DNA of 64,000 bases, taken from NCBI GenBank assembly GCA_965223265.1, contig OZ244999.1:8704001-8768000 (forward strand), in the 5' to 3' direction. This document shows, piece after piece, positions 30,988-36,818 of this stretch. Position 1 is the first letter of the stretch, and each line of letters opens with the position of its first letter. The DNA comes from Planctomycetota bacterium (lineage in GTDB: Bacteria > Planctomycetota > UBA8108 > SXIK01). The notes under the pieces are model-generated. The model saw only the letters and a program-made list of their open reading frames with translations. It was not told the origin of the DNA and made no database searches. A program made the position numbers and the translations under genes.

Positions 30988-32729
30988 GTTCCGCGGTTGC
31001 GAGTCGCCACCACGTTCTTGTGGCGCTCGTGTCGCTCCTTGCATTCGTCCTGCCGAGTGCGCTCTACGATCTGCAGCTTCCGGACGAACCGCGTGTCGCG
31101 CACACAAGTCTAGAAACCGCTCGCAGCGCTGGCGTCGTCGTACCGACCGTCAACGGCGAGCCGTTTCTGCAGACGCCGCCGCTCTACTACGTGACGCTGG
31201 GCCTGTGGCAGCGTACTTTTGGCGTCGAGCCTGACGGCTTGTCGCGCGGTGTGTCGAATGTCTGCGCGATCCTCACGCTTGTGGTAACGATGACGCTCGC
31301 CTGGCGCTTCTTCGGCCGCCTTGGTGCGTTCCTGTGTGGCACAGTCCTCGCGTCGACGTTTCAGTTCTGGGACCTGAGCCACCGCGTCGTCGTCGACATG
31401 ATGCTGACGCTCTTCAACACGATCGGGTTTGTCCTCGTCGTTGAGATTCTGTCTACGCACCGCCCGCGCTTGGTGCACGGTCTGTTGCTCGGCTTCGCAC
31501 TCGCCTTGTCGTTCCTGACGAAAGGGGTGCCGGGGCCGTCGTTTCTCGCTGCGACGACGGTCGCCGTCTTCATGGTCTATCGCCGCGCGTTGACCCCAGC
31601 GCGTTTGCGTGTCTTCGGCGTGGCCGTGATCGCCGCCGTCGCTGTCGTCGCGCCGTGGGTGTGGGCGCTCTACCAGGTCGACCCCAGCTACCCCCGAGAG
31701 CTGTTGCTGGCGCACGTCTTGGACCGAGCCATGCGCGGGACCTCCCACAATCCGCACAACTTCGACTTCGCGCATCGCGCGCTCCTCCATATCCTGCCGT
31801 GGACACCGTTTCTTTTAGCCGCCCTTGGGAGCCGCCTCCGCTCGGTTCGTTGGCGTAGGTTAGGTCGACGCCGTTGGTCCGAGCTTGATCAGCACCAAAG
31901 ATGCGCCACCTTGGCGTTGCTCTACGTTTTAGTGCCAGCCGCACTGCTCGCCTTGTCGCGGGCGAAGCGAGATCTCTACTTGCTGCCGTGCGTTCCGGCG
32001 GTCGCCCTTGTTGTCGCCGCTTGGCTGACGACGGTTTCGGACACCCGGTGGTTCGCCCGTCTTGGCCGTGTGTGTGGCTTCCTGTGCGCCATGCTCGTGC
32101 CTGTTGGTGCGGCGCTGATTCTGGCGACACCGAACGGCGGCGGTTCGAAGTTGGTGTTCGCCGCGCTTGGGACGCACTTCTTTCTGCTGATCCGCTACGA
32201 GCAACGTCGCCGCCGCGGGCAGCTGGCAACGAACCAGGTCTCGCCTGCATTCAGGGCGCACGACGCCACGCCAACCGATTCGTTGGCCTCGCGACCAGGA
32301 CTGACGACCACCTGTCTCTGTTTGGTGCTCACGGTGGCGATGTGGGGGACGCTGTATCGAATCGGTCGCAGCGTCAAAAGTAGTGCGGCTCCGCTGGGTC
32401 GCGTAGTGGCAGCGCTGGATGCTGGAGGCGCGGAGATTCTCGGTTATCAACTTTCTGAGCGCGAGATCGCCGCTGTGGCATGGTACCTTCGCCATCCGTT
32501 TCGAGCTTTCAGCTCCGAAGCAGAACTGCGCGAAGAGGTCGGTGCTAAGTCGCGGACACGGCGGGGTCTCGTGATCGAGGAGGGCGAACTCGAACGGCTA
32601 CGGCAATCAAAGCGCGGCTTGATCTTGTCAGCCTGGATCGAAAACCTCGCCGTGAATTTGCGTCGCCGGCGGCTGCTCGTGCTCGTGCACGAGCCAGAGG
32701 TGCCGGAGAACGTAGGAGGTGATCAGTGA
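30984..32729 (+). CDS. ArnT/PMT-like GT-C membrane glycosyltransferase
   Basis: DEPR; PTVNGEPFLQTPPLYY; LTKG; KR.LYLLP; multiple TM helices; GTGA overlap with upstream gene. Confidence 0.82.
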   Translation: MSSAVASRHHVLVALVSLLAFVLPSALYDLQLPDEPRVAHTSLETARSAGVVVPTVNGEPFLQTPPLYYVTLGLWQRTFGVEPDGLSRGVSNVCAILTLVVTMTLAWRFFGRLGAFLCGTVLASTFQFWDLSHRVVVDMMLTLFNTIGFVLVVEILSTHRPRLVHGLLLGFALALSFLTKGVPGPSFLAATTVAVFMVYRRALTPARLRVFGVAVIAAVAVVAPWVWALYQVDPSYPRELLLAHVLDRAMRGTSHNPHNFDFAHRALLHILPWTPFLLAALGSRLRSVRWRRLGRRRWSELDQHQRCATLALLYVLVPAALLALSRAKRDLYLLPCVPAVALVVAAWLTTVSDTRWFARLGRVCGFLCAMLVPVGAALILATPNGGGSKLVFAALGTHFFLLIRYEQRRRRGQLATNQVSPAFRAHDATPTDSLASRPGLTTTCLCLVLTVAMWGTLYRIGRSVKSSAAPLGRVVAALDAGGAEILGYQLSEREIAAVAWYLRHPFRAFSSEAELREEVGAKSRTRRGLVIEEGELERLRQSKRGLILSAWIENLAVNLRRRRLLVLVHEPEVPENVGGDQ

Positions 32730-33286
32730 GAATCACGAAAGTCTACACGCGGAAGGGAGACGGAGGTGAGACGCAGCTGGGAGGAGGGCAAACGGTCTCC
32801 AAGGCGGATGCTCGCATAGCGGCGTGCGGCGCAGTTGACGAGCTCAATAGCTCCATCGGAGTTGTGATCGCGGGTGGGGACGATGCAAGATCGCAGCGCA
32901 TGCTGAGCCGGGTGCAAAATGACCTCTTTCATGCTGGGTCCGAATTGTGCATGCTCGAGGAAGATCAGAGAAAGTGGGACATCCCGCGCATCAAGCAGTG
33001 TCATGTGGATGCGCTCGAGAGCGAGATCGACACTCTGCAGCAAGATCTCAAACCGCTGGAGGAGTTTGTCCTTCCCGGCGGAACGCCAACTGCCGCCCAG
33101 CTTCATGTGGCGCGTGCCGTGTGTCGGCGCGCGGAGACCTGTGTGGTTGCACTGGCACAAAGCGAGGCGGTTTCGGCGCCTCTCATTGCTTACCTCAATC
33201 GTCTTTCAGATCTCCTGTTTGTCATGGCACGCCACGACAATTGGACCAACCAGCGTGCGGACGTCCTGTGGGACAAGAAGGCGTGA
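32726..33286 (+). CDS. PduO-type cob(I)alamin adenosyltransferase
   Basis: KVYTRKGDGGET; GAVDELNS; FVLPGG; RAVCRRAE; YLNRLSD. Confidence 0.93.
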   Translation: MRITKVYTRKGDGGETQLGGGQTVSKADARIAACGAVDELNSSIGVVIAGGDDARSQRMLSRVQNDLFHAGSELCMLEEDQRKWDIPRIKQCHVDALESEIDTLQQDLKPLEEFVLPGGTPTAAQLHVARAVCRRAETCVVALAQSEAVSAPLIAYLNRLSDLLFVMARHDNWTNQRADVLWDKKA

Positions 33287-33288
33287 GT

Positions 33289-33303
33289 GTCCAATTCTTG
33301 GAC
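33289..33303. promoter_or_regulatory. Candidate enhancer (bEBP) binding palindrome
   Basis: GTCCAA-N3-TTGGAC, about 115 bp upstream of the sigma54-like motif. Confidence 0.35.
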
Positions 33304-33416
33304 GAGGTGGCGCGTTCTGCTCCGTGTCCGTGCGCGGAACGCTGCTCGCTAGCGGTGAATGCGGCGTAAATGCTGACGTCATCGACCTCGGGCTGCGGCC
33401 TCCGATCGGTGTGTGG

Positions 33417-33431
33417 TGGCATGTGGGTTGC
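33417..33431 (+). promoter_or_regulatory. Candidate sigma54 (-24/-12) promoter
   Basis: TGGCATGTGGGTTGC matches TGGCAYG-N4-TTGC with exact GG-N10-GC spacing, 116 bp before ATG 33548. Confidence 0.6.
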
Positions 33432-33547
33432 GGAATGGAGGTGGGGCTCCGTTTCTGCAGAGGAGCACGACAGTCCGGCCGGACGCCGCGTCCAAGCCTC
33501 AGTTCGGTTTGTGTCAGCGCCGGAAACCTCCACCGCAAAGAGCGATC

Positions 33548-33811
33548 ATGCCAAAAAGCGACCATGACTCTGACCGCGACGACACCGAGCAGATGGCTGG
33601 CCAAGCGCCTGCGCCTGTCGCGGAGACGACGTCGATGGTTTCGGCCGACCCATCGGTCGAGGCACGGGCTCGCAAGCGAAAGGACGTTCCGCGTCCAGTA
33701 GGTCGCGTGGAGGTTGGCGTGTTTGAGATCGACTACGATCGGGAAATGGCCTACCTCATCGACGAGGGCCGATTTGGGCCGGAGTGCCGCCCGTTGGGTT
33801 TTAAGAAGTAG
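33548..33811 (+). CDS. Small hypothetical protein (87 aa) upstream of the actin-like gene
   Basis: ATG-started ORF ending 16 bp before the next gene; acidic/disordered N-terminus and ordered-looking C-terminus. Confidence 0.6.
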   Translation: MPKSDHDSDRDDTEQMAGQAPAPVAETTSMVSADPSVEARARKRKDVPRPVGRVEVGVFEIDYDREMAYLIDEGRFGPECRPLGFKK

Positions 33812-33827
33812 GGGAAGTGTTGCGGCA

Positions 33828-34889
33828 ATGCGGCATGAAGCACTAGTGGCATCTTCTGACGGGGGAGCCCCGCGCGTTGGCGTCGATTTCGGCAGCTGCG
33901 AAACCAAGCTGGCCTTGCCGTTCGCCTCGACGGCGCCGCAGCCGCATTATCTTCATGTGCCGACGCTCATCAGCTACTCCCGGCCTGAAGCCGAGCCGAT
34001 TCAATTCTCCTGTATCGGCAATGCTGCTGTGGATCGGCGAGACCATCTCGACCTGCAGAATCCACTGACGGTCCCCGCCGCGGAGCGTGGCCGCGTGCTC
34101 AAAGACTTCGCCATGCACCTCCGCGATCTGATGCAGAAGCGGAAAGAGCCGAGCGCGTGGGGCGTTGTTGGGTGTCCGAGCGATTTGGACGGTCCGGAGG
34201 CGATGGCGCGCCGAATGCTAGCGAACGAGCTCTTCGAGCGTGTTGTTTTCGTCGACGACATGTTCCTTACCGCGCTCTCGGTGGCGTCACAGGAGGTGCG
34301 GCAACACAGCATTCTGGTGGACGTCGGCCACGCTTCGATTCGCGGGGTCTTGATGCAGGGAATCGCTCCCGACGCGGAGCATCGAGTTCATGTCGATTTC
34401 GGCTGCGATCGGCTCGTCGATGCCGTCGGAAAGGCATTGTTGCTGCGCTATCCTGAGCTTGTGTTGACGGACGTCACGCTCGAGCGCCTGAAACGGAAGC
34501 TTGCGTTCGTGCACCCGGCGCGCCGGCGGTGTAGATTGCGGCTACGCTTCCGAGGCCGAGCCAAGTTGATCGACGTCACCAGGGCGGTCGAGGAGGCGTG
34601 TGCGCGCATAGTCGGTCCGGTTCTCAAGGCGACTCGCGAGATTCTTGCGCGTTGTCCGTCCGACGACATCGAGTCGTTTCAGCGCCACATTCTCCTGGTC
34701 GGGGGCGGTGCACACATTCCTGGTCTCGCAGCCCGCGTCCAGGACGAGCTTCGTGCGGACGGCTTTGAGTGCGCACGCGTGCGGTCGGCAAAGAACGCGT
34801 CTCGCTTGGTCGCCCGCGGTGCGTTCGAGTGGGCTCAGCAGCTGCCGCCCGAGGAGTGGTCGATTCCGCTGTTCTCGTTCGCCGAGTGA
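33828..34889 (+). CDS. Divergent MamK-like bacterial actin (MreB/MamK superfamily)
   Basis: Phosphate-1 GVDFGS; phosphate-2 VDVGH; adenosine LVGGGAHIPGL; MamK-like segments HLDLQNPL, LRYPEL, DVTRAVEEAC and RGA...AQQLPPEEW. Confidence 0.8.
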   Translation: MRHEALVASSDGGAPRVGVDFGSCETKLALPFASTAPQPHYLHVPTLISYSRPEAEPIQFSCIGNAAVDRRDHLDLQNPLTVPAAERGRVLKDFAMHLRDLMQKRKEPSAWGVVGCPSDLDGPEAMARRMLANELFERVVFVDDMFLTALSVASQEVRQHSILVDVGHASIRGVLMQGIAPDAEHRVHVDFGCDRLVDAVGKALLLRYPELVLTDVTLERLKRKLAFVHPARRRCRLRLRFRGRAKLIDVTRAVEEACARIVGPVLKATREILARCPSDDIESFQRHILLVGGGAHIPGLAARVQDELRADGFECARVRSAKNASRLVARGAFEWAQQLPPEEWSIPLFSFAE

Positions 34890-36155: not shown

Positions 36156-36602
36156 CTACGCGTGATCCGACTCGAGCTCGCGAGCCGGAAGCGTGATCTG
36201 CTGTAGGCGCCAACCGGTTGGCGACAGGCTGAACTTTCGACTGTGCGTGAGCGTCGTTTCAATCGCTTGACGCAGTCCGGCAGTCGACTTGCGTTTCGCC
36301 TCGACTTGAGCTTTGACCTTCGAGAACAGGTCGTCCTCGGACACTGCACCATCGACCCGAAGAATTGCCTCGATCGCATCCTCGAGACCGCGTGAGGTCA
36401 TTTGCTGCTGCTTGCTCGTCTTCTTCGCTGGCGAGCGCTTGGACGTGCGGCTCTTGCCCTCGAGGCCAGAGATGCCGGCTTGGATGCGGCGAATCTCCTT
36501 CTGCAGCTGCTGTTCCTCCTTCTTGAGTTCAGCCAGCCGTTCTCGGGCGCGCTGTTCTTCCGCCTTCAGCTCTGCGACGACGTTCGTGATCTTCGTATCC
36601 AC
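36156..36602 (-). CDS. Hypothetical coiled-coil protein with possible C-terminal winged helix
   Basis: GGAGG RBS before GTG; heptad-rich N-terminus; basic linker; short alpha/beta C-terminus. Confidence 0.6.
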   Translation of the reverse strand: MDTKITNVVAELKAEEQRARERLAELKKEEQQLQKEIRRIQAGISGLEGKSRTSKRSPAKKTSKQQQMTSRGLEDAIEAILRVDGAVSEDDLFSKVKAQVEAKRKSTAGLRQAIETTLTHSRKFSLSPTGWRLQQITLPARELESDHA

Positions 36603-36818
36603 TCTCGGTACCTCCTGATCGGGTGACTCAGATCGCGCGCCGCCGCCAACCGTGGCCACTGCCACGGCGGAGCGTTCACGCCTTTCCCAAGTCTTCCTGC
36701 CGGCGAGCATGGCGTCGACCGAATTGGATTATCGGAACCAATTGCGGCGCTGTCGCCGCATTCGGCGGTCGCATCGCTATGGATCGCTATCGGCGGTTGG
36801 TAGCTGAGTCGAGGCCGA

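Follow-up and report, generated by a model that had tools for sequence, protein, structure and literature searches.

MamK (PDB 5LJV, 5LJW and 5JYG), the actin for which the acidic MamJ is the linker partner, and ParM, whose barbed-end cleft between subdomains IA and IIA is bound by the C-terminal peptide of the DNA-binding-domain protein ParR, are bacterial actins that each work with a dedicated partner protein. BeeR of Opitutus terrae (B1ZZL4; PDB 8R2N), from the Verrucomicrobiota, forms a three-stranded tube and was described with no known function, partner or regulation (Bergeron et al., 2025; PMC11929497); in the consulted text of the paper and its preprint there is no mention of operons, neighbours or Planctomycetes. 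Saltatorellin of Saltatorellus ferox, a planctomycete-related, non-magnetotactic actin of the MamK superfamily, is described in a preprint as MamK-like and as forming filaments when expressed in E. coli (bioRxiv 10.1101/817700). Among the papers listed on MamK-like actins in Planctomycetes, titles and abstract openings include nothing on the lineage described here. That lineage is represented in a stretch of 64,000 nucleotides (the window; C1:8704001-8768000) of a single-contig 9.18-Mb genome, whose nearest relatives have Planctomycetota names, by a sigma-54-type promoter followed by genes for an 87-aa micro-protein and a divergent 353-aa actin-like protein. Promoter, micro-protein and actin form a real, conserved unit, and on balance we consider it just probable that this unit makes a filament that is induced through sigma-54, hydrolyses ATP slowly or not at all and has its own docking partner.

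The 353-aa protein belongs to neither BeeR nor MamK. It scored 155.6 bits on the NCBIfam hidden Markov model (HMM) for BeeR, 121.2 bits on that for MamK (120.8 bits in the genome search) and 22.1 bits on that for MreB, each below the family cut-off (NF053558, 530 bits; NF040964, 400 bits; TIGR00904, 365.75 bits); true BeeR representatives reached 506-562 bits on the BeeR model. Pfam returned MreB_Mbl alone (34.4 bits), and no DnaK/Hsp70 model matched at E ≤ 1. The same ranking emerged from a PDB sequence search with HMMER (BeeR 8r2n, 4.5e-26; MamK 5ljw, 7.3e-20; MreB, 6e-06) and from Foldseek with the AlphaFold2 (AF2) model of the protein (predicted local distance difference test, pLDDT, 88; predicted template modelling score, pTM, 0.87), where 8r2n came first (E 1.7e-27, TM-score 0.81), MamK 5ljv second (7.6e-24) and MreB fifth (6.8e-20). 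The model has the four-subdomain actin/ASKHA fold, with D20-x-G22, D165-x-G167 and G292-G294 present, in agreement with the actin-fold motifs that the initial annotation had read from the sequence. That annotation had also held that the protein tracks MamK better than MreB; this stands, and the RYPEL and PPxxW segments are common to both proteins, but MamK does not stand as the nearest family, since the nearest described family is BeeR.

Phylogeny placed the protein more precisely. A HMMER search over 1.84 billion representatives returned 210 proteins at E ≤ 1e-3, 26 of them at E ≤ 1e-30. A 97-row tree was built from those of P0003-P0135 that are 300-470 aa long, the window protein, three paralogs from the same genome and the genome's MreB as outgroup; shorter fragments, longer fusions, P0017 and P0018 were left out, the saltatorellin sequence is absent from this and the following tree, and clades were labelled by NCBIfam scans of 10 members. 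In this tree, MamK proteins formed a clade of 26 rows (P0068, 508 bits) and BeeR proteins one of 14 (support 96; P0059, 562 bits), and P0021 (378 bits) belonged to a group of canonical BeeR-like planctomycete proteins. The window clade (18 rows, 100) fell in a 35-row clade (96), together with a sister group of 13 rows and a group of 4 rows that includes a second divergent paralog of this genome. A 50-row tree (LG+C20+F+G4, quick search) had the same topology, with support of 94 for MamK, 92 for the rest, 98 for BeeR and 99 for the window clade. BeeR was thus monophyletic in both trees with the window clade outside it, and the window protein fell on the non-MamK side of the MamK/non-MamK split (Shimodaira-Hasegawa-like approximate likelihood-ratio test, 91-94) and did not branch within MreB. 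Among 58 other genomes of the class, orthologs (43-55% identity) were found in all three remaining members of the same family and in one further genome. The protein therefore represents a planctomycete lineage that has not been described and that belongs to the BeeR side of the superfamily. It resembles BeeR in HMM, PDB sequence and fold matches (compared as a predicted monomer fold alone, whereas BeeR is known as a three-stranded tube), and, as with BeeR, no magnetosome context is apparent for it among the ORFs from ~29.8 to 39.5 kb. The two differ in phylum, and BeeR carries a disordered N-terminal extension of 30-50 aa that is missing here, where 15 residues precede the first strand (E16-21, AF2 model). 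Saltatorellin, in contrast, is placed near MamK in its preprint, and the MamK-like copy in the present genome is a different gene (C1:3900376-3901386).

The lineage also differs from BeeR and MamK in its nucleotide site. In HMMER alignments to MamK (5ljw) and BeeR (8r2n), D143-D144-M-F lies opposite S-E143-P-F of MamK and P-E-P-F of BeeR, and the phosphate-2 motif, DIGxGxxD in BeeR, reads DVGHASIR. Both replacements had been recognised in the initial annotation; the alignments agree, and the substitutions proved to be fixed across the clade. Opposite MamK E143, 17 of the 18 window-clade rows carry Asp and the remaining one His, and the preceding residue is Asp, against Pro or Ser in canonical proteins. 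The catalytic Glu is retained in 11 of 13 rows of the sister group and in none of the 4-row group; in the related L063 group this position is taken by Asp, Pro or Gly. Of the 35 rows of the wider clade, 34 end the phosphate-2 loop with Arg in place of the canonical Asp. The nucleotide-binding residues D20, G22, D165, G167 and G292-294 are all retained. In MamK, E143A and D161A give static filaments, and mutating the equivalent Glu abolishes ATPase activity in other actins, as that paper states (PMC5059902). From these replacements we infer that the 353-aa protein hydrolyses ATP slowly or not at all, and the description as a 'non-dynamic or capping actin' offered in the initial annotation may be apt. 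The window clade further shares an invariant-looking W-x-I-P-L-F-S-F tail that is disordered in the monomer model and that is longer than the corresponding part of BeeR, and hydrophobic. Separately, we observed that degenerate catalytic sites recur across the MamK/BeeR superfamily, and that a 5-row group (the P0085 group) has Gly at the catalytic position in three of its five members.

These same residues can be read differently. It is possible, though doubtful, that the filament is fully dynamic and hydrolyses ATP, with D143, D144 and R172 forming an alternative catalytic site and the small protein serving as a cargo adaptor like MamJ or ParR. Each of the three residues is conserved to 90% or more across the clade alignment, suggesting selection on a working site and not decay, and the phosphate-2 Arg predates the Glu-to-Asp change, as the combination of Arg and Glu in the sister group (11 of 13 rows) indicates; variable N-terminal parts of the partner (below) would also fit a docking peptide with exchangeable cargo ends. 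This reading has to contend with the static filaments of MamK E143A (PMC5059902), with the His in one clade member and the Asp, Pro or Gly of the L063 group, which argue against a strict catalytic need, and with the finding that no cargo gene is conserved next to the pair in the loci compared.

The second component of the unit is the micro-protein encoded 16 bp 5' of the actin gene, where it had initially been annotated. It had no Pfam or NCBIfam match, an ESM Atlas search gave no usable match, and its family comprised eight relatives among 5.8 billion proteins, the named ones all 'hypothetical'. By tblastn and open reading frame (ORF) listings, its C-terminal part was found directly 5' of every orthologous actin gene examined in this way and also at two of three metagenome loci (the metagenome scan covered at least three). 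Its N-terminal part is acidic, of low complexity and varies between loci; the C-terminal motif (VFxLDYDRExAYLxxEG) is conserved. Seven window-clade loci have 300 nt or more of flank (the window's own, L053, L054, L055, L010, L071 and L072), and at every one of them the motif stands directly 5' of the actin gene; the conservation of the gene pair in relatives, a check that the initial annotation had proposed, is thereby borne out. Judged by these comparisons, the 87-aa ORF is evidently a real gene. Searching all six frames of the genome with a motif profile gave one strong copy (E 6e-21) and otherwise only matches with E > 6; a strict pattern matched at three places, one of them the window locus, and a loose pattern at seven, and within the fetched loci both patterns matched solely directly upstream of actin genes.

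Related motifs precede paralog loci, at L063 and L057 by pattern and at L062, the ortholog of L063, by eye, while the N-terminal parts of the partners are mutually unrelated, being acidic, rich in Pro/Ser/Glu, or helical (coiled-coil-like). At L011 an ORF (601-1251, +) upstream of a canonical-type BeeR-like actin (1370-2488) carries the motif (FAVDLDEEAAYLESEG) behind a domain that resembles STAS (Pfam, 22.0 bits; cut-off 22.6), a hint that signalling domains can be tethered to an actin through the motif. None of 12 other canonical BeeR-like loci had the motif. At BeeR loci themselves the upstream partner is different: in L012, L015 and L051 (Verrucomicrobiota and others; three of 19 loci in a crude ORF listing), upstream ORFs that end 100-200 nt before the BeeR gene have another tail motif, R/HFDDIPxxIDxxL (FDDIPxxID-type), and homology of this partner to the window partner could not be shown.

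We next examined how the two proteins might interact. The actin-like protein (20-row alignment) and the C-terminal 45 residues of the micro-protein (8-row alignment) were co-folded, with an interaction score (ipSAE) of 0.72 against 0.00 for the best control. Among solved complexes 58 of 80 attain this mark, and among mismatched pairs 2 of 110, a calibration that holds roughly here because the alignments were self-built and small. The runs had at least 86% of contacts in common, with a partner pLDDT of at least 71, so that the co-fold with the small protein suggested in the initial annotation passes its controls. The predicted interface joins partner residues 53-73, 75-76 and 82-85 to actin residues 210-227 and 231-247. 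In the tightest pairs, partner V58-D64 forms an added beta-strand against actin residues 236-242, and helix 214-225 is joined by partner residues 66-70. Using an ungapped alignment block to the 8r2n chain (offset 36, checked on R242, N246, I277 and L284), we compared this surface with the cross-strand residues of BeeR, N246, I277 and L284, of which I277 and L284 form a pocket that buries Leu385 of the neighbouring strand, as given in the BeeR paper (PMC11929497). These residues map to positions 210, 241 and 248 of the window protein, in or beside the predicted interface, and the partner is therefore predicted to sit in the socket of the BeeR lateral contacts. The arrangement recalls ParM/ParR in that an actin-like protein is bound by a short peptide belonging to a small partner; the predicted site here is the subdomain IIB hairpin, however, and the partner has no recognisable domain.

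The co-fold also placed partner contacts at residues 71-72 (subdomain IB) and 298, which could reflect capping or clamping of a monomer. With contacts on both IB and IIB, the peptide could span the pointed-end face, and the genome encodes a canonical BeeR-like and a MamK-like paralog. We regard it as quite improbable, nonetheless, that the 353-aa protein is a non-polymerising or capping subunit that modulates the filament of the canonical BeeR-like paralog or is kept monomeric by the micro-protein, given that the genome shows no linkage between the canonical paralog and the pair in the window, that conservation of the longitudinal-contact regions and the tail follows the pattern of filament formers, and that the characterised relatives BeeR (PMC11929497), MamK and saltatorellin all polymerise.

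The third component is the promoter. The element TGGCATGTGGGTTGC differs from TGGCAC-N5-TTGC at one position and has the correct GG/GC spacing; the initial annotation was right about its position and spacing, but calling the motif exact went slightly too far. On both strands of the whole genome there are 19 exact TGGCAC-N5-TTGC and 36 TGGCAY-N5-TTGC sites. When nine loci, including a paralogous pair of the same genome, were anchored on their best match, a GGCAC-N4-CTTGC island appeared in all nine, a count that overstates their independence since the loci are kin. At least seven of the nine agree at each position of the island and almost none in the flanks, and the island lies 12-143 nt before the first following ATG. 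The ortholog filter (≤2 mismatches, GG and GC fixed) matches 0.234 times per kb per strand, or ~0.04 times per interval, a rate and not a probability. L057 and L011 had no convincing -24/-12 element. The genome has two full-length rpoN genes (C1:7157987-7159354, +, and C1:5073831-5075234, -; 403 and 377 bits), as the reading of the promoter had called for, and 33 PF00158 matches above 120 bits, corresponding to about 33 enhancer-binding proteins. A sigma-70 promoter scan found no promoter-like sites, and terminator-like sites numbered three against 2.3 in shuffles, so that neither scan was informative. The pair probably depends on sigma-54 in vivo, as judged from promoter sequence and conservation.

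That two neighbouring genes merely happen to stand behind a chance or unused -24/-12 match is scarcely credible. The background rate of the ortholog filter shows that such matches do arise by chance, but pair and element occur together in nine of nine loci, the same-genome paralogous pair among them, with unconserved flanks, and the co-fold of the two products passes its controls. A two-gene unit behind a -24/-12 element, as initially proposed, accordingly recurs in orthologous loci. The features of the locus are collected below.

Features of the micro-protein/actin locus and its immediate neighbours (window coordinates).
Feature	Position	Strand	Evidence or remark
PduO-type cobalamin adenosyltransferase	32726-33286		Upstream of pair; Pfam 198 bits
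Sigma-54-type -24/-12 element TGGCATGTGGGTTGC	33417..33431	+	GG 33418-19, GC 33430-31; 117 nt before partner ATG
Partner gene, 87 aa (P0002)	33548..33811	+	tblastn, ORF listings, alignments
Docking motif, partner residues V58-F85 (VFEIDYDREMAYLIDEG...P..GF)	33719..33802	+	Conserved in alignments; predicted actin contact
Actin-like protein, 353 aa, undescribed BeeR-side clade (P0001)	33828..34889	+	HMM, PDB sequence search, trees, AF2, Foldseek
D143-D144; D144 at place of MamK E143 / BeeR PEP Glu	34254..34259	+	HMMER alignments, motif table
Remodelled phosphate-2 loop D165-V-G-H-A-S-I-R172 (canonical DIGAGTTD)	34320..34343	+	HMMER alignments, motif table
Subdomain IIB helix and beta-hairpin, residues 210-247, predicted docking surface	34455..34568	+	Co-fold
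C-terminal tail W344-S-I-P-L-F-S-F351	34857..34880	+	Conserved; low pLDDT in monomer model
PHP-domain protein	287 bp downstream of actin gene		Pfam scan

Taken in sequence, a slowly or non-hydrolysing filament would arise as follows. The sigma-54 promoter would drive a bicistronic operon, so that filaments appear only once an enhancer-binding protein has fired. The first gene would supply a micro-protein with a variable acidic N-terminal part, probably disordered to judge from its composition, and a docking peptide of ~28 residues; the second would supply an actin-fold protein that keeps the nucleotide-binding Gly and Asp residues, with the catalytic Glu replaced by Asp and the phosphate-2 Asp by Arg. 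This protein most likely binds ATP and polymerises, and with hydrolysis slow or absent its filaments would be long-lived. The partner strand V58-D64 is predicted to add to the IIB hairpin at 236-242, with the short helix of the partner packed against helix 214-225. Since this surface receives the neighbouring strand in BeeR, the partner would control lateral association (strand number or bundling) or, alternatively, decorate the filament with its N-terminal part. In this account the conservation of gene pair, motif and promoter, the fold and clade placement, the fixed substitutions and the controlled co-fold are observed, and polymerisation, low ATPase activity, the role of the partner and sigma-54 dependence in vivo are deduced.

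Besides the kinship of the promoter loci and the small co-fold alignments, several observations weigh against this reading. The catalytic Glu is also absent in 4 of 26 MamK and 4 of 14 BeeR representatives, so its loss is not unique to the window clade, and Asp144 could still serve as catalytic base. One locus, L073 (45% identity), lacks the motif in its 162 nt upstream; a PF00158 search found no enhancer-binding protein gene in the window; and the charge complementarity between hairpin and motif shows no clean covariation over nine pairs. The contacts at residues 71-72 and 298 belong here as well.

In its most specific form, which we think unlikely on the whole, the hydrolysis-impaired, sigma-54-induced filament would have its IIB socket, which in BeeR receives the neighbour's C-terminal tail, plugged by the micro-protein. 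If so, the micro-protein would determine how protofilaments assemble, whether they remain single, form pairs or close into tubes, and this way of regulating a bacterial actin would have no described counterpart and would give a first functional handle on the BeeR branch. In any case, neither the lineage nor its fixed catalytic replacement, docking motif or promoter has been described. This sister lineage of BeeR offers a promoter type that implies condition-specific expression and a micro-protein with a mappable docking peptide as an experimental handle, and its clade-wide natural replacement of the Glu is a test of how much hydrolysis a bacterial actin needs.

The same genome encodes four MamK/BeeR-type actins besides MreB, which makes it a good case for studying how paralogous cytoskeletons are kept apart. 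A second divergent paralog (C1:3174385-3175410, -; L063 1498-2559; 35% identity) has its own partner of 117 aa (P0171; L063 2599-2952, -) with a related motif (FVLDFRYEVACM), and at L063 ~3109, 143 nt before the partner gene, stands one of the 19 exact TGGCAC-N5-TTGC sites. The near-MamK paralog mentioned above (minus strand; L002 1411-2481) scored 391.9 bits against the cut-off of 400, has SEPF and DLGAGTTD, and is preceded by an ORF for a 396-aa acidic coiled-coil protein (L002 2693-3883, -). The canonical BeeR-like paralog (C1:5231363-5232250) has PEPF and DIGAGTTD. With respect to regulation, several sigma-54 activator domains lie in ORFs of 1600-2000 aa, and the genome's sigma-54 regulatory system is large.

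Around the pair, three ORFs between ~29.8 and 39.5 kb were scanned with Pfam and are the cobalamin adenosyltransferase, the PHP protein and a coiled-coil ORF; the others were named from reading alone (an oxidoreductase, glycosyltransferase-like membrane proteins and an aldolase-like protein). The upstream adenosyltransferase and membrane protein are syntenic in close relatives alone, and the PHP gene, which we had considered as part of the unit, was ruled out because it is absent at all other loci; the functional unit is therefore the promoter and the two genes. A GTCCAA-N3-TTGGAC palindrome (33289-33303), taken initially as standing at enhancer distance, is present but was rejected as an enhancer, the window holding 26 perfect 6-N3-6 inverted repeats; by eye, the upstream stretches of four ortholog loci had no counterpart of it. 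The coiled-coil ORF (36156-36710, -; 184 aa) has weak sub-threshold Pfam matches and is not conserved beside the pair elsewhere. No protein in the genome passed the MamK cut-off (NF040964), other mam genes not having been searched genome-wide. Canonical mreB and mreC are missing from the window, as initially reported (mreD and other mam genes were not searched there), and lie instead side by side at C1:3.936-3.938 Mb, where a genome search found MreB with 426.9 bits and MreC adjoining it.

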